This document shows positions 8,224-27,568 of a stretch of 64,000 nucleotides of DNA, piece by piece. The first letter of the stretch is position 1. Every line of letters starts with the position of its first letter. The translations under genes were made by a program, and so were the position numbers. This DNA comes from Tissierellia bacterium. GTDB taxonomy: Bacteria; Bacillota; Clostridia; Tissierellales; Peptoniphilaceae. Location of the stretch: NCBI GenBank assembly GCA_030537765.1, contig JAUNVH010000001.1, positions 55,047-119,046 on the forward strand, written 5' to 3'. A model generated the notes under the pieces. The model did no database searches. It was not told the origin of the DNA and was given only the letters and a program-made list of their open reading frames with translations.

Positions 8224-8724
8224 TTAGCCAATTAAGTCTTTTATAATACTATACTCTTTTGTAAGTTTTTCGACATTCATTCTGGCATTAGCTGGACTAG
8301 TTGAAGGCAGTTTAATAGCTTCAATTTTGGTCTTACTGTAGAGATATTTATTATAGAGTTCATAAGCTTTATTCCCAGTAGTGACAATATATTTGATATT
8401 CGTTTTATTAATTAATGATACTATATCATTAGGAATTACATTCCTTATAGATGAATCTTTAGATCCAGAAATATCACATTCTCTAATAACATCCCATATA
8501 GCAATATTATATTTATATAAAATTTTTATTCGTGAACCATTGTCCTTTGGTATCTCGATATTTAAAATATTTCCTAAAACTTTCCAAAACCTATTTTGAG
8601 GATGAGTGTAATAAAAATTTATTTCACGAGATTTAGGAGAAGGAAAAGTACCTAATATCAAAAGTTTCGATTTTTTATCATAGATAGGATCTAATTTATG
8701 CTTCAATCGTTCCATATTTTTCAA
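8224..8724 (-). CDS. DNA-deoxyinosine (hypoxanthine) glycosylase, UDG superfamily
   Basis: 166 aa. LILGTFPSPKSREINFYYTHPQNRFWKVL and a C-terminal LPSTSPAN match the hypoxanthine-DNA glycosylase-type UDG family. The start may be the ATG at 8715. Confidence 0.7.
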   Translation of the reverse strand: MKNMERLKHKLDPIYDKKSKLLILGTFPSPKSREINFYYTHPQNRFWKVLGNILNIEIPKDNGSRIKILYKYNIAIWDVIRECDISGSKDSSIRNVIPNDIVSLINKTNIKYIVTTGNKAYELYNKYLYSKTKIEAIKLPSTSPANARMNVEKLTKEYSIIKDLIG

Positions 8725-10084
8725 TCAACCTTCTTGCCACATGAACTCCACTTGCCGAAGCTTGGCTTAATGAATGAGTAACGCCACTACCATCACCGAT
8801 TGCATATAGGTTTTCTATTCTCGTTTGTAAATTTTCGTCAACTTCGATTTTCGAATTATAAAATTTAACTTCCACTCCATAAAGCAAGGTGTCATTATTT
8901 GCAGTGCCAGGTGCAATTTTATCTAAGGCGTATATCATTTCAATTATTGAATCTAATTGCCTTTTAGGTATGACTAAAGACAAATCTCCCGGTGTTGCCT
9001 TTAAAGTTGGTCTTGTAAAACATTTCTCCATTCGCCTCTCACTCGACCTTCTCCCCTTTACTAAGTCGCCAAATCGCTGCAATAATACTCCACCACCCAG
9101 CATATTTGATAGTCTGGCTATAGACTCACCGTAATCATTACTGTCCTTGAAAGGTTCAGTGAATCTGTTGCTTACAAGCAATGCAAAATTCGTATTTTCA
9201 GTTTGTAATTCTTTATTCGAATAAGCATGTCCATTTACAGTAATAATTCCATTAGTATTTTCAGCAACGACATGCCCATAGGGATTCATGCAAAACGTTC
9301 TAACTAAATCATTATATTTAGAAGTCAGATATACAATTTTACTTTCGTAAACTTCATCTGTTATATGTTTAAAAATTTCTGCAGGCAATTCTACTCTTAC
9401 TCCAATATCTACTTGATTAGAATATGTCTTTATATCAAAATTTTTACAAATATCTGCTAACCAACGCGAACCGCTTCTGCCCGTTGCTAAAACTAAATCA
9501 TTTGATGTGAATATGCCTTTGTTAGTCTTTACAATGAATTCATCATTCTTCTTTTCAATTTCTCTAGCTTCTGTATTGAAAATCATATCTATTTTATCTT
9601 TAGTATAATTATAAATATGTTTTAAAATCCTTATATTTCTATCTGTTCCAAAGTGTCTAACCTTTGCATCTAATAGATGTAGATCATGTCTCAACGCAGT
9701 AGTTTTTAAATCAGAATTGGTTGTGGAATATAAAGGCGCTGTATGTCCGTCGTATTCGCATAAAACAGAGTCTACATATTCCATCAATGAAATTGCTTCT
9801 TTAGGACCTATATATTTGAATAGATCTCCTCCAAAATTATTAGTGATATTATATTTTCCATCAGATAAAGTGCCAGCTCCGCCATAGCCATTCATAATAT
9901 CACAAGGATTACAACTTATGCATCTTTCTACTTTCTTTATATTAATTGGGCAGAGTCTTTCTTCTATGATTTTACCTTTATCAATAATTAATACATTTGC
10001 ATCGATATTGTTTTTAGTAAACTCATTGGCGATAAAAACACCACTTGCGCCACAGCCAATTACAATTATGTCGTATTTTTTCAT
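8696..10084 (-). CDS. FAD-dependent protein of unknown function (COG2509-like)
   Basis: 462 aa. N-terminal dinucleotide fold DIIVIGCGASGVF, Cys cluster C-x9-C-x2-C-x2-C followed by GYGGAGTLSDGK, and a C-terminal AIGDGSGVT. Confidence 0.7.
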   Translation of the reverse strand: MKKYDIIVIGCGASGVFIANEFTKNNIDANVLIIDKGKIIEERLCPINIKKVERCISCNPCDIMNGYGGAGTLSDGKYNITNNFGGDLFKYIGPKEAISLMEYVDSVLCEYDGHTAPLYSTTNSDLKTTALRHDLHLLDAKVRHFGTDRNIRILKHIYNYTKDKIDMIFNTEAREIEKKNDEFIVKTNKGIFTSNDLVLATGRSGSRWLADICKNFDIKTYSNQVDIGVRVELPAEIFKHITDEVYESKIVYLTSKYNDLVRTFCMNPYGHVVAENTNGIITVNGHAYSNKELQTENTNFALLVSNRFTEPFKDSNDYGESIARLSNMLGGGVLLQRFGDLVKGRRSSERRMEKCFTRPTLKATPGDLSLVIPKRQLDSIIEMIYALDKIAPGTANNDTLLYGVEVKFYNSKIEVDENLQTRIENLYAIGDGSGVTHSLSQASASGVHVARRLIEKYGTIEA

Positions 10085-10090
10085 TATTAT

Positions 10091-10681
10091 CTACCGTCTT
10101 TCAAAATAATCATTAATCATATTAATTCCATATTCCCATAACTTAACTGAAGATTTTTTTAATATTTCCAGGCGTTTATAAATATCTTCTTTTTCTATAT
10201 TGTGTTCTGCCCAGCTCCCACCATTGTTAATATAATTTAGCACCATGGGTTGCAATCGATCTAAGCCATTTGCAAAAATTGAATCATTAGTTTCTTTATC
10301 TTCAAATTCATACCATAGTTTTTTAATCATATTAGAAGTTTCTAAGCTAGCCAATTCACAGAGTTTTTCACAAGCTTCTTCTTCTCTAATGCGTTGGTCT
10401 TTAATATTCTGTTTATCATATGCAAAGGTATCACCTGCATAGATTTCAATTAAATCGTGCACCAAAAGCATATTTATAACATTTGAAATATCGATTTCTA
10501 TTTCGCAATATTTAGATAAAACTAATGCATACATACATATGTGCCAAGAATGTTCTGCATCATTTTCGTTATTATTATTTGATGTATTATGAGTCATTCT
10601 ATAAGTGTTTTTCATCTTATCTATTTCAATTAAGAATTCAATATCTAAAATTAAATTTTTATTACGAGACAAATTATTCAT
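10091..10681 (-). CDS. HD-domain hydrolase (YfbR-like 5'-deoxynucleotidase family)
   Basis: Metal-binding motifs AEHSWH and LVHDLIEIYAGD. I set the start at ATG 10681, preceded by the SD AGGTGA; the ORF-track start (10726, TTG) lies inside the predicted promoter. Confidence 0.7.
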   Translation of the reverse strand: MNNLSRNKNLILDIEFLIEIDKMKNTYRMTHNTSNNNNENDAEHSWHICMYALVLSKYCEIEIDISNVINMLLVHDLIEIYAGDTFAYDKQNIKDQRIREEEACEKLCELASLETSNMIKKLWYEFEDKETNDSIFANGLDRLQPMVLNYINNGGSWAEHNIEKEDIYKRLEILKKSSVKLWEYGINMINDYFERR

Positions 10682-10697
10682 ATAATCACCTATAATT

Positions 10698-10726
10698 AGT
10701 ATATAAAAATTTCTGTATATAAGCAA
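10698..10726 (-). promoter_or_regulatory. Sigma-A type promoter for the HD-hydrolase operon
   Basis: Minus strand TTGCTT (10726-10721), 17-nt spacer, TATACT (10703-10698), directly after terminator T2 and about 17 nt upstream of the start codon. Confidence 0.5.
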
Positions 10727-10761
10727 TAAAAGAGCGAAAGATTAACGCTCGTCTTTCGCTC
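10725..10761 (-). terminator. Intrinsic terminator T2 (second terminator downstream of the B12 riboswitch)
   Basis: Minus strand GAGCGAAAGA-cgagcgttaa-TCTTTCGCTC followed by TTTTATTGC. Confidence 0.7.
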
Positions 10762-10830
10762 CGAAAACTTTTATCTGCCGTATATATGCACAATTGGAGG
10801 TTGTATAAAAATTTGGCAGATCTAGTAAAT

Positions 10831-10859
10831 AAAAAAACCTATATCCGATGGACATAGGT
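10831..10859 (-). terminator. Intrinsic terminator T1 (expression platform of the B12 riboswitch)
   Basis: Minus strand ACCTATGTCC-atc-GGATATAGGT (10 bp including one G-U, triloop) followed by TTTTTTT, about 14 nt downstream of the aptamer's 3' end. Confidence 0.7.
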
Positions 10860-10872
10860 AATCATTTTAATT

Positions 10873-11040
10873 GAAACCTGCATTTCCCACCGAAAGCTTG
10901 TTTGTATAATTGGTATCCTGGCTCAAGGCTGCCTACTTTCGCGTCTTCCCAATATAAATCAGTGACTTAAGCGATTTCGTTCCTATTACAGTAGCGGGGG
11001 CTGCACCGGAGTCTAACCGGTTTCCCAATGGTTTTTTATA
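10873..11040 (-). promoter_or_regulatory. Cobalamin (B12) riboswitch aptamer
   Basis: Minus strand: ATTGGGAAACCGGTTAGACTCCGGTGCAGCCCCCGCTACTGTAATAGG...AAGTCACTG...TGGGAAG...GAGCCAGGATACCAAT. This matches the conserved GGGAA / GGT..TCC / CCCGC.ACTGTAA core, the CACTG...GGGAAG motif and the B12 box (consensus AGCCAGGAGACC). Boundaries are approximate. Confidence 0.85.
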
Positions 11041-11052
11041 TTTACTAATTCC

Positions 11053-11080
11053 ATTATACCAAATTTCGATGAATTATCAA
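11053..11080 (-). promoter_or_regulatory. Sigma-A type promoter driving the B12 riboswitch
   Basis: Minus strand TTGATA (11080-11075), 16-nt spacer ending in TGg (extended -10), TATAAT (11058-11053). Begins about 12 nt after the pnp stop codon. Confidence 0.6.
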
Positions 11081-11092
11081 GATAATTAGAAA

Positions 11093-13198
11093 TTATTTTT
11101 TAGATTCCATTTCTTTTTCTCTATCTTTTATCAAAGCCTTATGAGATAAGCTAATTTTACCTTGATCGTCAATGCCTGTCACTTTAACTTCAATTCTGTC
11201 GCCGACTTTTAATACATCTTCAACCTTATTAATTCTCTTAGTAGAAATTTGTGAAATATGAAGCAGACCTTCAGTACCTTTAAAGAGTTCAACAAAAGCA
11301 CCAAAGTTCATTATTTTAACTACTTTTGCATTATATACTTCCCCAACTTGTGCTTCTTTGGTAATTTCTTCTATCATTGCTATAGCTTTATCTGCACTTT
11401 TTTTATCTTCAGCGACAATAAATATTTTACCATCATCCTCAATATCGATTTTCACATCTGTTGTTTCGATGATTTTATTTATAGTCTTGCCTCCGCCGCC
11501 AATTACTTCGCCGATTTTTTCTGGTTTAATATTAATAATAAATATTAATGGTGCGTATTTGGAAAGTTCAGCTCTTGGTTCAGATATAGTATCAGTTATA
11601 TTATCAAGGATTTGAAGTCTTGCAAGTCGAGCTTTCTCCAAAGCATCTTCTAAAACTCTCTTATCTATTCCATCGATTTTTATATCCATTTGAATAGCTG
11701 TTATTCCTTCTTTTGTTCCTGCGACTTTAAAATCCATATCACCTAAATGATCTTCTAATCCCTGAATATCAGTTAATATAGAAATATCATCATCTTCCTT
11801 AATTAAACCCATAGCAATGCCGGCAACTGGAGCTTTAATTGGTACTCCACCGTCCATCAATGCTAAAGTAGAACCACAGACACTCGCTTGAGATGATGAG
11901 CCATTTGAGCTTAAAACTTCAGACACGAGTCTAATTGTATATGGAAATTCTTCTTCAGAAGGAATTACAGGTAAAAGTGCTTTTTCTGCCAATGCTCCAT
12001 GTCCAATTTCTCGTCTGCCTGGGCTTCTCATAGGCCTAGTATCACCTACCGAAAATGGTGGGAAATTATAATGGTGGATATATCTCTTAGAATCTTCCTC
12101 GCCTAAATCGTCGACAACTTGAACATCGCTTGATGAGCCTAGTGTTAAGAGGGTCAATACTTGAGTTTCTCCTCTAGTAAACATTCCTGAACCATGTGTT
12201 CTTGGAATTAGCCCTGCATTCGATGTCAATTGTCTAATTTCGTCAAATTTTCTACCATCAGGTCTGATTTTATCTTTTGTAATTAATCTTCTAAACTCTT
12301 CACCTATAATCGCATCGATAGAATCAGAAATAAAAGAAATTTCTTCAGGGTATTCTTCGTCTAGACTTTCATGTATTTTTGCTTTCGCTAAATCTAGAGC
12401 TTCATTTCTTTTTGTTTTATCGACGATGCGCATTGCATTGACCAAATCATCTTTTCCGATTGTTTCAACCTTTTTGACAATATCATCAGAAGGCAAATGT
12501 AGTTTTACCTCCATTTTCTCTTTGCCTATATCTTCTTGAATATCTTTTATAAATTTACATATTTCTTTAATACTGTCTTGAGCAAAAAGAATTCCTTCTA
12601 ATACTTCTTTTTCATTTATAATATCTGCGCCAGCTTCCACCATCATAATAGCATTTTCAGTTCCAGAAACTACTAAATGCATTTTAGAATTTTCGCGTTG
12701 CTCGTTATTTGGATTTATAATATACTCTCCGTCAACTAAGCCTACTAAGACACTTGCAGTTGGGCCTGCAAATGGAATATCTGAAATTGAAAGTGCAATT
12801 GATGATCCAATCATTGCAATTATTTCTGGCGAACAATCAGGATCTACAGACAGTACTGATGCAATTATTTGAACGTCATTTCTGTATCCTTCTGGAAATA
12901 GTGGCCTTAAAGGCCTATCGATGAGACGCGAGTTTAATACGGCTTGTTCACTAGGTCTACCTTCTCTTTTTATAAATCCGCCAGGTATTTTTCCGACAGA
13001 ATAAGATTTTTCGACATAGTCTACACTAAGTGGAAAAAAATCTATTCCGGCTCTAGGCTCTTTAGAAGCGGTGGCAGTCACTAAAATCATGGTATCTCCA
13101 TATGTCAGTAAACAAGAGCCATTAGCTTGTCCAGCCATTTTTCCTATGTTCACATTTAAGTTCTTCCCCGCTAAATCAAAATTATAAACTTTCTCCAT
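11093..13198 (-). CDS. pnp: Polyribonucleotide nucleotidyltransferase (PNPase)
   Basis: 701 aa. Two RNase PH domains, a KH domain ([11 protein letters not shown]) and an S1 domain ([21 protein letters not shown]). Sits downstream of rpsO. Confidence 0.95.
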
Positions 13199-13223
13199 AC
13201 ATCCTCCTACAATTCATATATAC

Positions 13224-13251
13224 AATAAAAGAGTGGGATATCCCCCACTCT
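13224..13251 (-). terminator. rpsO terminator / pnp leader hairpin
   Basis: Minus strand AGAGTGGG-ggatat-CCCACTCT followed by TTTATTG, starting at the rpsO stop codon. The classic rpsO-pnp intergenic hairpin position. Confidence 0.75.
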
Positions 13252-13518
13252 TTAACCTCTGATTTTTAATCTTTCAATTAATGAACGATATCTTTCTATA
13301 TCTTTGCGTTCTAGATAGCGCATTAGATTTCTTCTCTTACCAACCATTTTTAATAGACCTCTTCTTGAGTGATGGTCATTTTTATGAGTCTTTAAATGTT
13401 CGGTTAGTGAATTGATGCGATGTGTTAAAATCGCAATTTGCACTTCTGGTGAACCAGTATCTTCGTCATTAATTTTGTACTCTTCAATTAGAGCTGCTTT
13501 TTCTTCTTTACTTATCAT
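13252..13518 (-). CDS. rpsO: 30S ribosomal protein S15
   Basis: [23 protein letters not shown] signature. I set the start at ATG 13518 (88 aa) because GGAGGA lies 7 nt upstream, inside the longer ORF-track call. Confidence 0.93.
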
Positions 13519-25516: not shown

Positions 25517-26564
25517 TTATATTATCGCTTTCTATGATTTGAAAAAGTTCATTTAATAAATCTTCCTGTTTGACAGTTTTTAAAATTTTTCCTTTTTTAA
25601 AAATAACACCTTTGCCTTTTGCTCCCGAGATACCGTAGTCTGCTTCTTTTGCTTCCCCCGGACCATTAACTGGACATCCCATAACAGCAATTTTAATGGG
25701 CTTATTTATTTTGCTTAAAGCTCTTTCTTCGACTTCTTTTGCCAATTTGAACATATCAATCGAAGTTCTCGAACATGTCGGACATGAAATTACTTCGGCA
25801 TCAAAGTTTCTTATACCTAAAGATTGAAGAATTCTTTTAGCTGTTATTATTTCATCAACAGGTTTTGATGTTAAGGACACTCTGATAGTGTCGCCAATGT
25901 TTTGGCTAAGTAATGCACCAATTCCGACTGATGATTTTATGCTGCCATATTCCTTAGTACCTGATTCAGTAATACCAATATGGAGAGGATAATCACAAAT
26001 CTGTCTAAATATTTTATTAGCTCCAATTGTGTCTTTGACTAAAGTCGATTTTATAGCAACTTTTGTATTATAAAAATTTAATGATTCTAAAACTTCAATT
26101 TCCATCAGCGCAGATTCAAGCAGTGATTTTTCATTTACTCCATTATATTTTTTTAAAACATTTTTTGCTATAGAACCTGAGTTGACTCCAATTCTAATAG
26201 GTATACCATAGTATTCACAGGCTCGTACAATTTCACGCACTTTATCTTTGTTGCCAATATTTCCAGGATTTACTCTGATACAATCGGCCTTATTTTTTGC
26301 TGCATAAATTGCGAGCTTGTAATCGAATTGAATATCAGCTATAAGAGGAATATTAATATGCTTTTTAATTTTTGAAAATGAATTAGCATCTTCCTCATCA
26401 TTTACAGCAGCGCGTATAATTTCACAACCTGAATTTTCAAGTTCTAAGATTTGACCAATTGTACTTTCTATATCTTTTGTTTGAGTATTGGTCATTGACT
26501 GTATGCTTATAGGAGATCCTCCACCTATAGGAACATCTCCAACATAAATTTTTTTTGATTTCAT
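25509..26564 (-). CDS. ispG: 4-hydroxy-3-methylbut-2-en-1-yl diphosphate synthase
   Basis: 351 aa, GcpE family. Fe-S cysteines in ISCPTCSRT and GCPVNGPGE. Confidence 0.93.
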   Translation of the reverse strand: MKSKKIYVGDVPIGGGSPISIQSMTNTQTKDIESTIGQILELENSGCEIIRAAVNDEEDANSFSKIKKHINIPLIADIQFDYKLAIYAAKNKADCIRVNPGNIGNKDKVREIVRACEYYGIPIRIGVNSGSIAKNVLKKYNGVNEKSLLESALMEIEVLESLNFYNTKVAIKSTLVKDTIGANKIFRQICDYPLHIGITESGTKEYGSIKSSVGIGALLSQNIGDTIRVSLTSKPVDEIITAKRILQSLGIRNFDAEVISCPTCSRTSIDMFKLAKEVEERALSKINKPIKIAVMGCPVNGPGEAKEADYGISGAKGKGVIFKKGKILKTVKQEDLLNELFQIIESDNING

Positions 26565-26566
26565 AT

Positions 26567-27568
26567 TTAATTACCCATTCTAAATATATCGTTAAATATA
26601 GTTACATATATCATTAGGCCGAAAAGCAAAACAAAACCAAAAGCATTAATTCCAATAGCGATTTTTTCGGGAATTTTTTTACCCGAAATAGCTTCTGCTA
26701 ATATCATCAAAAATCTGCCCCCGTCAAGCGCTGGAATGGGCAACATATTAAATATTCCCAAATTGGCTGAAATTGCCCCAATAATATATAATACTCCAAT
26801 TATTCCCAATTGCGATGCTTTGCCAATTTCTCGAGCAACGCCTACAGGTCCCATTAATTCAGATACATCTTGTTTAAAAGTTACTAATTCTTTCAAGAAC
26901 TTTAAAATCATGAGCGATGTATTTTTAGTTTCCTTAAGTCCAGCTTTTAAAACATTCCCAGCATTCTTCATAGGTTGATAATTTATCCCTATTGTCTTTC
27001 TGCCGTTTGTGTCTTCAGTTTCAGATTCTATATTTAAAATTTCTTTATCTCTTTCTATTTTCAAATTTATAGTACTGGAATCAGCCTTACTAATGTTTTC
27101 AATAATATCTTCCCAGGATTTTACAGGCGTTTTATTTATTTCAAGTATCTTATCTTTTGCTTTTAAACCTGCATAATATGCAGGCGAGTTATCTAAAACT
27201 TCTCCAATGGTTGTTGAAGGTGTTCCGACGATAGCAAAAAATAGTGTAAATGCGAGTATTGCTAAAAGCATATTCATTAAAGCACCAGCCACGATGACGA
27301 TCATCTGCTTAATAGGACTCACATTGTTAAAAGCACGCAAATCATCAGAATTTTCCTCTTCTCCTTCCATAGCAACAAAACCACCTATTGGTAATGCTCT
27401 GAGCGAGTAACTGGTCTCGCCATAACTTTTAGAAAATATTTTTGGCCCCATGCCAATAGAGAATTCATTTACTTTTACGTCAGAAAGCTTGGCCGCAGTA
27501 AAGTGACCAAATTCATGCAAAAATATTACTGTGAAAAACACAAGTATAGTTATAATAGCAGCTAGCAT
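26567..27568 (-). CDS. rseP: RIP site-2 zinc metalloprotease (M50, RseP/RasP)
   Basis: HEFGH zinc motif, a central PDZ-like segment, and LPIPALDGG in a C-terminal TM helix. Confidence 0.9.
   Translation of the reverse strand: MLAAIITILVFFTVIFLHEFGHFTAAKLSDVKVNEFSIGMGPKIFSKSYGETSYSLRALPIGGFVAMEGEEENSDDLRAFNNVSPIKQMIVIVAGALMNMLLAILAFTLFFAIVGTPSTTIGEVLDNSPAYYAGLKAKDKILEINKTPVKSWEDIIENISKADSSTINLKIERDKEILNIESETEDTNGRKTIGINYQPMKNAGNVLKAGLKETKNTSLMILKFLKELVTFKQDVSELMGPVGVAREIGKASQLGIIGVLYIIGAISANLGIFNMLPIPALDGGRFLMILAEAISGKKIPEKIAIGINAFGFVLLFGLMIYVTIFNDIFRMGN

Follow-up and report, generated by a model that had tools for sequence, protein, structure and literature searches.

To our knowledge, only a handful of riboswitches control a non-coding RNA instead of the gene that follows them, and the B12 cases that we know of (EutX, Rli55 and AspocR) all serve the use of ethanolamine or propanediol. 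AspocR of Listeria is an antisense RNA to pocR that is controlled by a B12 riboswitch, and SreA and SreB, also of Listeria, are riboswitch RNAs that additionally act in trans by base pairing. EutX of Enterococcus faecalis and Rli55 of Listeria monocytogenes are sponge RNAs gated by AdoCbl riboswitches; each has its own promoter, a ligand-dependent terminator that sets whether a short or a long RNA is produced, and a functional module that is made only without B12 (PMC8237595). The eut-associated riboswitches of both species are described as class IIb (PMC11477304). In Desulfovibrio, a SAM-I riboswitch/sRNA is proposed to pair with an mRNA elsewhere (bioRxiv 10.1101/803072).

The locus described here lies on the minus strand of a 64-kb stretch of DNA from an uncultured member of the Tissierellia (hereafter, the window). 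From computational evidence only, we give a probability of about 0.5 to the reading that it holds a working cobalamin OFF-riboswitch and that this switch regulates the production of a non-coding RNA and not a B12 gene. As in EutX and Rli55, the order of parts is own promoter, riboswitch, a terminator predicted to be regulated, an extension and a final terminator. A covariance model search (cmscan) identified an RF00174 (Cobalamin) match at 11070..10894 on the minus strand, covering model positions 1-189 with a score of 87.7 bits (E 2.8e-20; gathering score 31.5 bits). This was the sole Rfam match within the window, and RF00174 was the best-scoring member of its clan for the sequence. The segments GCCCCCGCUACUGUAA, GUCACUG...GGGAAG and GAGCCAGGAUACC, the last being the B12 box at 10924..10912, align to upper-case consensus positions of the core and B12 box of the model. 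Judged by model score, the aptamer is a genuine cobalamin riboswitch, as it had been called in the first-pass annotation; corrinoid binding and a consequent change in termination are predicted. Unlike the class IIb riboswitches associated with eut genes, it fits the general RF00174 model at full length.

The upstream neighbour is pnp (polynucleotide phosphorylase, 13198..11093, minus strand, assigned by ORF and Pfam). A promoter-like site of the extended -10 type, TTGATA-16-TGgTATAAT (11080..11053, minus strand), begins 12 nt past the pnp stop codon (11095-11093) and matched 11/12 positions in the promoter scan, with the TG present. Since there is no terminator between pnp and this site, pnp transcripts should also enter the riboswitch. 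The P13 hairpin AAGCUUUCGGUGGGAAAUGC (10899..10880, minus strand; sequence and fold) carries a G-rich loop, L13, whose GGUGGG faces the C-rich L5 CCCCC, a possible kissing loop according to sequence and fold prediction. The intrinsic terminator T1, which is the expression platform, was detected by the terminator scan at 10859..10830 (minus strand); its stem (10859..10837) has 10 pairs and an AUC triloop, and is followed by U6-A-U3. The second terminator, T2 (10761..10725, minus strand), is evident in the sequence and its fold, with a 10-bp stem at 10761..10732 (GAGCGAAAGA/UCUUUCGCUC), a 10-nt loop (CGAGCGUUAA) and the tail UUUUAUU, and it was absent from the terminator-scan output because the scan permits loops of 8 nt at most. 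A check of the interval between T1 and the next gene, which encodes an HD-domain protein, revealed no credible ORF. The first-pass annotation had laid out these same parts (a private promoter after pnp, the aptamer, T1, extra RNA and T2, with no ORF after T1), and all of them were recovered, the promoter, T1 and T2 at the places given there. The aptamer and this anatomy are directly supported.

Nascent-RNA folds indicated that L13 has an alternative, antiterminator pairing with the 5' arm of T1 in all four members of the family described below. The T1 sequence of the window is entirely different from those of its relatives, yet this pairing has been kept, and it predicts an OFF switch in which B12 gives a short RNA and its absence a long one. 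Transcription would enter from the promoter at 11080..11053 and by read-through from pnp. With B12 bound, the P13 loop would be held in the L5-L13 kissing loop, T1 would form and the RNA would end near 10830, giving a short form of ~215 nt. In the absence of B12, the run of G in L13 would pair with the 5' arm of T1 and the polymerase would run on to T2 near 10725, giving a long form of ~320 nt whose ~100 extra nt would be the effector. Both the ligand response and the direction of the switch are predictions. The covariance model puts the 5' strand of the closing helix P1 over the -10 hexamer (pairing GUAUAAU with AUUAUAC), so an RNA begun at the private promoter would lose the best P1, and this counts against our reading. 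In the window, P1 reaches -13.0 kcal/mol if it draws on bases before the predicted start (about 11046) and -5.2 kcal/mol with those after it; in the three relatives, strong P1 helices (-16 to -19 kcal/mol) lie after the start.

A B12-related gene downstream of an RF00174 aptamer is usual, if not strictly defining. The window shares its aptamer, the P13 block UUUCGGUGGGAAAUG and a terminator-type platform with the ordinary Firmicutes cobalamin riboswitches that stand before transporter-like genes. However, in each of the ordinary examples (L088-L090, L094, L096, L097 and L099) a Shine-Dalgarno sequence and its gene come directly afterwards, whereas the riboswitch of the window leads first into a further structured RNA and another terminator and is not followed by any B12-related gene. 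The first gene after T2 encodes an HD_3/YfbR-like phosphohydrolase (10681..10091, minus strand; ORF and Pfam), and it is followed by those for an FAD protein, deoxyinosine glycosylase, DUF1361, DeoD and PcrA. Pfam scans of 50 window ORFs, a set that left out those of 1413, 1182, 801 and 140 aa, returned nothing but housekeeping functions, with btu, cbi, cob, metE, nrd, eut and pdu all absent; the earlier claim that no B12 gene lies nearby thus holds for the ORFs scanned.

The unit was found with its parts in the same order (promoter, aptamer, P13, T1, ACCUC-loop hairpin, T2) in three relatives, L083 (GCA_030537855.1), L092/L106 (SRR28895738 for L106) and L098 (QWCK01000609.1). Together with the window these carriers make up four Tissierellia lineages, all uncultured, and the conservation of the unit among them is a direct observation. 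The aptamers of the relatives score 92-101 bits. The 20-mer of P13 is identical in the window and L083, and its 19-base core, AGCUUUCGGUGGGAAAUGC, is invariant in the window, L083, L092 and L098; a 15-nt core is also present in ordinary cis-acting cobalamin riboswitches. T2 hairpins occur in 4/4 lineages with differing stems. Each relative has its own extended -10 promoter right behind the stop codon of the upstream gene, corresponding to that of the window in L083, L106 and L098, with the positions aligned for L083. The upstream gene is pnp in the window and rluD in the relatives, and in all four lineages no more than ~12 nt, free of any hairpin, lie between the stop codon of that gene and the start of the element.

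That close spacing would suit a 3'-end module of the upstream operon, in which T1 and T2 end the pnp or rluD mRNAs and the aptamer serves as a 3' stabiliser with no trans function. The same explanation would account for the best P1 of the window needing bases upstream of the private start, and hence existing in read-through RNA alone. We nevertheless consider it quite improbable, as read-through alone hardly explains an extended -10 promoter conserved in four lineages, a ligand-sensing aptamer and a covarying second hairpin with constant loops would both be superfluous for mere termination, and in the closest relatives pnp or rluD ends with no module of this kind.

The extensions themselves showed compensatory stem changes. 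Between L083 and L098, 13/31 stem pairs had changed on both sides and none was broken, compared with 0-2 such pairs in slid controls, while the loop UCUACCUC and the linker AUAUUUAAUUACCCCU were invariant. This covariation is an observation on the L083/L098 pair alone, since RNAalifold on all four extensions, given a MAFFT alignment that was non-structural, returned no pairs and was set aside. A covariance model built from L083 and L098 (R1) located the extension of L092/L106 where it should be (27 bits, E about 0.009). Against the window it gave a weak match at 10724..10831 (14.4 bits with filters off, with 12.8 bits on the opposite strand). The window extension is the most divergent of the four, which also counts against our reading; the linker motif AUAUUUAAUUACCCCU is absent from it, and it shares with the L083, L098 and L092 family the order of parts and the ACCUC hairpin-loop motif. 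The ribosome-binding site of ispG in the window matches AUAUUUAAUUACCCCU at 15/16 positions. As for the proposal of the first-pass annotation that the ligand selects one of two non-coding transcripts, short or long, the layout in three other lineages and the compensatory stem changes speak for it, and the trans action that goes with it is a prediction.

A further reading is that the riboswitch of the window is a decaying relic, on its way out after the loss of a B12 gene that it once controlled. Its aptamer has the lowest score seen (87.7 bits vs 110-132 bits for full-length ordinary cobalamin riboswitches), P1 and P2 are degenerate, and the conserved linker motif is missing. We think a relic very unlikely, however: the core, B12 box, P13, T1, antiterminator pairing and 11/12 promoter are all intact, the stretch between T1 and T2 contains no remnant of an ORF, and the gene-less arrangement has persisted, with compensatory changes, across four lineages that share just 47-56% identity in their HD proteins.

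The HD gene is also central to the reading of the element as an ordinary cis-acting leader, in which termination at T1 would repress the HD phosphohydrolase gene, the FAD protein gene and further genes, and the middle hairpin of the extension together with T2 would merely add a second attenuator, a leaky one. On that reading the B12 regulon would have an overlooked member in the HD protein, which might be a phosphatase of corrinoids or, speculatively, of alpha-ribazole phosphate. The HD gene comes next in the window and in L092/L106, and the element lies within two genes of HD in 4/4 lineages despite the differing upstream gene. In L106, the Shine-Dalgarno sequence of HD starts ~12 nt past T2, the U-tract of T2 is poor and a promoter was not found; with the ribosome-binding site directly after T2 and no promoter visible, control in cis is plausible in L092/L106. 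In the window, the separate HD promoter reported by the first-pass annotation (TTGCTT-17-TATACT) is present as a sequence. With only 8/12 matching positions it did not reach the cut-off of the scan, and the leader it would produce is ~10 nt long; it is therefore weak evidence for independent transcription of HD.

Several observations led us to regard control of the HD gene in cis as unlikely. In L083 and L098 the unit closes with a 14-16-bp bidirectional terminator adjoining a convergent MTAP-like gene, so nothing downstream of T2 could be controlled in cis there; this gene and the strong terminator part the element from mtnA in L083 and L098 and from HD-FAD in L083, and a promoter-like site precedes mtnA in L083. 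The T2 of the window is a good terminator. The closest HD-FAD relatives (L081/L082 and L100) have HD joined to rluD across a gap of 8 nt with no riboswitch, a gap too short for the element, and in L108 and L114 HD has other upstream genes at gaps of 8 and 11 nt. A conserved riboswitch-HD link thus fails in these five loci, and it fails too among more distant HD homologues, which stand in unrelated contexts. The HD family has no NCBIfam name, and the attempt to assign HD/FAD function through solved structures matched only uncharacterised PDB entries. Our literature search revealed no paper connecting HD-domain phosphohydrolases with cobalamin riboswitches. Control in cis would also not account for an extension that covaries and retains invariant single-stranded motifs. 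Read-through into the HD/FAD operon, the alternative named in the first-pass annotation, is accordingly weakened by the closest relatives without the element and by the intervening genes in two lineages; what remains in its favour is the arrangement in L092/L106 and the weak HD promoter.

The non-coding RNA that we propose follows the logic of EutX and Rli55 but, having no ANTAR site, is not a member of that group. A search for the ANTAR dual-hexaloop site (two hairpins with A..G.. hexaloops) identified none in the four extensions and this candidate was rejected. One stray hexaloop occurs inside the T2 arm of L083. Also unlike EutX and Rli55, no eut, EutV/EutW or ANTAR genes were found among the ORFs scanned in the 64 kb, and the conserved single-stranded parts resemble base-pairing seeds and not a protein-binding platform. 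The analogy drawn in the first-pass annotation therefore stands for logic and layout, and it does not extend to the ANTAR site, the aptamer class or the eut genes. As with AspocR, a cobalamin riboswitch (here a predicted one) would set the length of a non-coding transcript and not of an mRNA. Unlike AspocR, no gene is antisense to the window extension, as all the neighbouring genes are on the minus strand, and the convergent gene of L083 and L098 lies behind the strong bidirectional terminator. The resemblance to SreA/SreB and to the Desulfovibrio SAM-I RNA is that a riboswitch transcript is proposed to pair with an mRNA elsewhere. In those systems the cis gene is kept and the terminated leader acts in trans, whereas here the effector would be the part made by read-through, and in two lineages a cis gene is lacking.

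Between T1 and T2, the extension folds with z = -3.8 and has a middle hairpin (10820..10774, minus strand) with the stem UCUGCC/GGCAGA. The apical region of this hairpin exposes ACCUCC (10801..10796), which is anti-Shine-Dalgarno-like; the loop is CCUCCAA inside ACAACCUCCAAUUG. Equivalent hairpins with (U/A)ACCUC(C/U) loops were found in L083, L092 and L098. Small RNAs of the RsaE/RoxS type in Gram-positive bacteria have C-rich, anti-Shine-Dalgarno seeds, and the extension is like them in that C-rich bases suited to ribosome-binding sites are left unpaired in a hairpin loop and linker. It differs in showing no sequence or model similarity to them in an Rfam E-value scan and in that its production would be gated by a riboswitch. 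In our reading, the long RNA would present the ACCUCC loop, be closed by T2 and pair with the ribosome-binding sites of mRNAs under B12 scarcity, the best candidate target in this genome being pnp. Trans action and the identity of the target are both predicted.

A complementarity search matched the extension segment 10811..10774 (minus strand) with the translation-initiation region of pnp at 13229..13192 (minus strand), a leader just past the rpsO terminator that contains the Shine-Dalgarno sequence AGGAGG and the start AUG at 13198. Pairing is possible at 33/38 positions, 8 of these as G-U, at -28.8 kcal/mol, and includes ACCUCC/GGAGG and CAUAUAUAC/GUAUAUAUG; the complementarity also registers as inverted repeat I1. 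The pnp site was the best complementary site in the 64 kb on both strands, with a score of 45 that was reached by 3/400 shuffles. The pnp leader of the L083 genome, the sole relative in which it could be read, has no such complementarity, and pnp was rejected as a conserved target. Local targets in L083, L106 and L098 were likewise rejected, as scans with their extensions gave background scores only. An ACCUC loop fits many Shine-Dalgarno sequences and so says little about targets.

For the lineage of the window, a tentative and in our view unlikely extension of the proposal is that pnp is regulated by a riboswitch in its own 3' untranslated region. The pnp mRNA, with no terminator of its own, would have to enter the aptamer, whose best closing helix would exist solely in such read-through RNA. 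With B12, the mRNA would end at T1. Without B12, both the mRNA and the separately started RNA would reach T2 and gain the 38-nt anti-RBS segment (10811..10774), which could anneal to 13229..13192, covering the leader, Shine-Dalgarno sequence and start codon of pnp, and either block translation or make a substrate for RNase III. The arrangement of pnp, riboswitch and HD gene, the conservation of which the first-pass annotation had put forward as a check, did not recur among the loci scanned. A cobalamin riboswitch followed pnp in 0/10 loci scanned with Rfam, five of which were pnp loci (Tissierellia relatives and L058), and a regex pre-screen of 80 PNPase loci gave a single match, L058, that Rfam did not confirm; conserved synteny was therefore rejected. 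In the closest PNPase relatives, the gene after pnp is either dut or a convergent methyltransferase gene.

Other candidate explanations were considered and rejected. An Rfam E-value scan of the extension gave noise and nothing credible, and its assignment to a known RNA family was rejected. In the window and L083, the GGUGGG and AUG of the P13 block could serve as ribosome-binding site and start of a leader peptide of 13-14 codons ending within T1; this AUG is part of the P13 stem, the block occurs in ordinary riboswitches, and the frame in L092 stops after 2 codons. On the opposite strand, L083 and L098 have a small ORF (GVIKYV...) that is a by-product of the linker motif and is missing from L092 and the window. 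A shared theme of methionine salvage was also dismissed, as the PNP_UDP_1 gene of the window is DeoD and is unrelated to the MTAP-like gene of L083 and L098.

Together, the window and its three relatives suggest a separate, recurrent family in uncultured Tissierellia, in which a full-length cobalamin riboswitch would gate a structured extension with unpaired motifs like base-pairing seeds. If this is correct, riboswitch-gated sRNAs reach past protein sponges, B12 regulons could hold targets that are invisible to gene-neighbourhood analysis, and it would be unwise to write off 'orphan' riboswitch matches in metagenomes as gaps in annotation. The pairing at the pnp start site, which is specific to the window, would if real be a case of a riboswitch regulating its upstream gene, and such control of pnp would tie B12 status to a central enzyme of RNA decay.

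Scanning of the 64 kb against all of Rfam with cmscan gave a single match, to the Cobalamin family RF00174, at 11070..10894 on the minus strand. At 87.7 bits (E 2.8e-20, full model; family threshold 31.5 bits), this match bore out the aptamer proposed in the first-pass annotation, and the private near-consensus promoter and the terminators T1 and T2 described there after pnp were also present. The promoter-like site (TTGATA-16-TGgTATAAT, 11080..11053; 11 of 12 positions, with an extended -10) lies 12 bases past the end of pnp at 11093. The aptamer is followed, on the same minus strand, by a P13 block (AAGCUUUCGGUGGGAAAUGC, 10899..10880), T1 (stem 10859..10837, with a triloop and the tail U6AUUU), a 47-nt middle hairpin whose apical part is ACAACCUCCAAUUG (10820..10774), and T2 (stem 10761..10732, loop of 10 nt, tail UUUUAUU). 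The fold of the T1-to-T2 stretch beat all 200 shuffles (z = -3.8), and no supported ORF of at least 20 codons was found between T1 and the HD_3/YfbR-like phosphohydrolase gene (HD), whose ATG is at 10681. The aptamer and the layout are thus real. The promoter TTGCTT-17-TATACT assigned to HD is a weak candidate: it agreed with the consensus at just 8 of 12 positions, did not appear among the promoter-scan results and would leave a leader of ~10 nt. The 50 window ORFs scanned with Pfam were ribosome, translation, DNA-replication and lipid genes; none was a btu, cbi, cob, metE, nrd, eut or pdu gene, in agreement with the claimed absence of B12-related functions.

The nearest relatives were distant, at only 56% identity for the HD protein and 70% for the PNPase. 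A second cobalamin aptamer (101 bits) was identified in L083 (GCA_030537855.1), a contig encoding an HD homologue. Searching metagenome contigs for the core ACTGTAA plus the block TTTCGGTGGGAAATG returned 12 loci, 11 of which had an RF00174 match (92-132 bits). Seven were ordinary riboswitches, with a terminator, a Shine-Dalgarno sequence and then a transporter-like gene, indicating that the P13 block is a generic platform element. Two loci, L092 and L098, had the layout of the window (L092, L106 and L107 are one species). The window, L083, L092/L106 and L098 share one order of parts: an upstream stop codon, an extended -10 promoter within ~12 nt, the aptamer, P13, T1 ending in U6-7, a hairpin with (U/A)ACCUC(C/U) exposed, a linker and the T2 hairpin. 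The fold z-scores of the four extensions, the RNA after T1 up to and including T2, ranged from -3.8 to -7.8. The aptamers of these gene-less units (window, L083, L092 and L098) scored 88-101 bits, and full-length ordinary cis-acting riboswitches with the same P13 block (L088-L091, L094-L096 and L099 compared) 110-132 bits; the 5'-truncated L097 scored 95.5 bits, and the window aptamer loses its score in P1 and P2. Another strong riboswitch (124-132 bits; L095 2115..2390, plus strand; L091 104..292, minus strand) shares this P13 block and also has a terminator. Within 900 nt downstream in L095 there are only minus-strand ORFs (a 32-codon ORF and a membrane-protein end), so that this may be one more riboswitch without a gene, in a different lineage. 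Unrelated matches were a purine riboswitch (L099 8586..8685, minus strand) and T-box leaders (L002 10268..10506, plus strand; L085 4646..4885, minus strand).

The L083 and L098 units could be aligned across the whole extension, for which RNAalifold gave three helices of 31 pairs. Thirteen of these pairs had changed on both sides and none was broken. An explicit count gave 100% pairing, versus 31-50% when partners were slid by 1-3 columns, and only 0-2 compensatory pairs in these controls. Invariant elements were loop UCUACCUC, linker AAAACAUAUUUAAUUACCCCUA and the GCAAU loop of T2. This pattern indicates that the extension is selected as a structure. A covariance model built from the two sequences matched L092/L106 where their extension was expected (27 bits, E ~0.009), and gave only 14.4 bits on the window extension versus 12.8 bits on the opposite strand. 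The linker motif was absent from the window extension. By its sequence, the window unit is probably a divergent family member, with the same part order and loop motif and lacking the linker motif. That the element is a decaying relic is very unlikely, since decay would not explain why four lineages show compensatory changes and have kept the platform intact.

The genes surrounding the unit differ. The background gene order is sepF-ylmH-lspA-rluD, then HD and a FAD protein. In the clade, the genes for the HD_3 phosphohydrolase and the COG2509-like FAD-dependent protein are a conserved pair that usually lies directly behind rluD (L081, L082, L083 and L100; window 8696..10681); both proteins are uncharacterised, and their nearest PDB entries, 3kh1 and 3nlc, bear no functional name. 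In L092/L106 the element lies between rluD and HD. In L083 and L098 rluD is followed by the element, a convergent MTAP-like gene and mtnA, T2 being a 14-16-bp bidirectional terminator; mtnA of L083 has a promoter-like site of its own, and HD-FAD come after it (the L098 stretch ends before that point). In the window, pnp and the element precede HD-FAD, a deoxyinosine glycosylase, DUF1361, DeoD and PcrA. The rluD-HD gap is 8 nt in the HD-FAD relatives nearest to the window (L081/L082 and L100), and L108 and L114 are likewise without the element. No element was present behind pnp in the closest PNPase relatives, and no cobalamin riboswitch was found there in the Tissierellia loci scanned. The unit recurs in relatives, but among the loci scanned the pnp-riboswitch-HD arrangement was seen only in the window. 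With neighbors differing across the four carriers, the common factor is the RNA unit itself and not a particular downstream gene. Read-through control of the HD/FAD operon, the alternative raised in the first-pass annotation, is conceivable, above all for L092/L106, where the HD Shine-Dalgarno sequence lies directly behind T2. Overall, we consider cis control of HD by the riboswitch unlikely, because it explains neither L083 and L098 nor the covariation, and no link between the HD family and B12 emerged from NCBIfam, the PDB relatives or a literature search.

Ligand is known to lock loop L13 of cobalamin riboswitches onto loop L5. When the nascent RNA was folded up to the T1 loop, the L13 G-run (CGGUGGGAA) paired with the T1 5' arm in all four carriers, although the T1 sequences of the window (ACCUAUGUCC...) and of the others (AUUCCUGCUG...) are unrelated. 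Based on this modeling, the switch would be of the OFF type: B12 would free the T1 5' arm and cause termination at T1, and lack of B12 would allow read-through to T2. EutX of Enterococcus faecalis and Rli55 of Listeria have been described with the same ligand and termination logic (PMC8237595).

In the covariance-model alignment, the 5' strand of P1 overlies the -10 hexamer, with GUAUAAU (11059..11053) pairing with AUUAUAC (10908..10902). The window P1 reached -13.0 kcal/mol when it drew on bases before the predicted start and only -5.2 kcal/mol when it drew on those after it; P1 after the start in the relatives had -16 to -19 kcal/mol. There was no terminator between pnp and the element, so transcripts from pnp bear the complete aptamer. 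Even so, it is quite unlikely that the element acts purely as the 3' end of the operon before it, as this leaves the conserved private promoter unexplained. In a repeat search, the first 20 nt past the predicted start (UAGUAAAUAUAAAAAACCAU, 11028..11047, minus strand) were 85% complementary to 10823..10842 (minus strand), comprising the T1 3' arm, its U-tract and the next bases; no such complementarity was seen in L083 when its sequence was read by eye.

The read-through RNA had no ANTAR dual-hexaloop site and no matching Rfam family, and is thus not a sponge of the EutX/Rli55 type. The comparison with these riboswitch-gated RNAs made in the first-pass annotation stands for logic and layout, but not for membership. 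The conserved unpaired parts of the extension are C-rich and resemble the 16S rRNA 3' end, which suits pairing with ribosome-binding sites. The window extension was compared with both strands of the full 64 kb, and its best complementary site was the pnp translation-initiation region (13229..13192; score 45 versus 30-34 elsewhere), where 33 of 38 positions pair across AGGAGG, AUG and all of the leader that follows the rpsO terminator. Of 400 dinucleotide-shuffled extensions, just 3 reached this score anywhere in the window, RNAduplex gave -28.8 kcal/mol (next ribosome-binding site -22.0, median -10.3), and an independent repeat search of 10600-13400 ranked the pair first among inverted repeats. 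The pnp leader of the L083 genome (L109, same contig) did not match the L083 extension (score 17), and local target scans in L083, L106 and L098 gave background scores only. We regard the pnp pairing as a lead, which may be lineage-specific or due to chance. Combined with the better P1 formed by bases upstream of the start, it raises the rather unlikely reading that a riboswitch at the 3' side of pnp feeds back on that gene. The rpsO terminator (AGAGUGGG...CCCACUCU plus UUUUAUU, 13225..13252, minus strand) lies between rpsO and pnp, and relative to L109 and L111 the window pnp leader has ~15 extra bases (GUAUAUAUGAAUUGU), which are the ones engaged in this pairing.

The extensions of L083, L092 and L098 share a 16-nt linker motif, AUAUUUAAUUACCCCU. 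At the ispG/gcpE ribosome-binding site of the window (AUGGGUAAUUAAAUAUG, 26563..26578, minus strand), 15 of 16 positions agree with the complement of this motif, with the AUG in register (ATG at 26564). If the antisense strands of the elements themselves are set aside, this was the sole match with at most two mismatches in the 1.3 Mb searched. The motif is missing from the extension of the window itself; in the relatives, ispG is a possible target. The L083 extension also has an unbroken run of 14 bases (UUACCCCUAAAUAU) complementary to L109 8904..8917 (plus strand), at the ribosome-binding site of a MiaB/RimO-like radical-SAM gene starting at 8921, a pairing score within background for a 10-kb locus.

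The best-supported interpretation of these sequence comparisons is that the unit is a B12-gated non-coding RNA of a small, previously undescribed Tissierellia family, whose effector is probably a base-pairing module.
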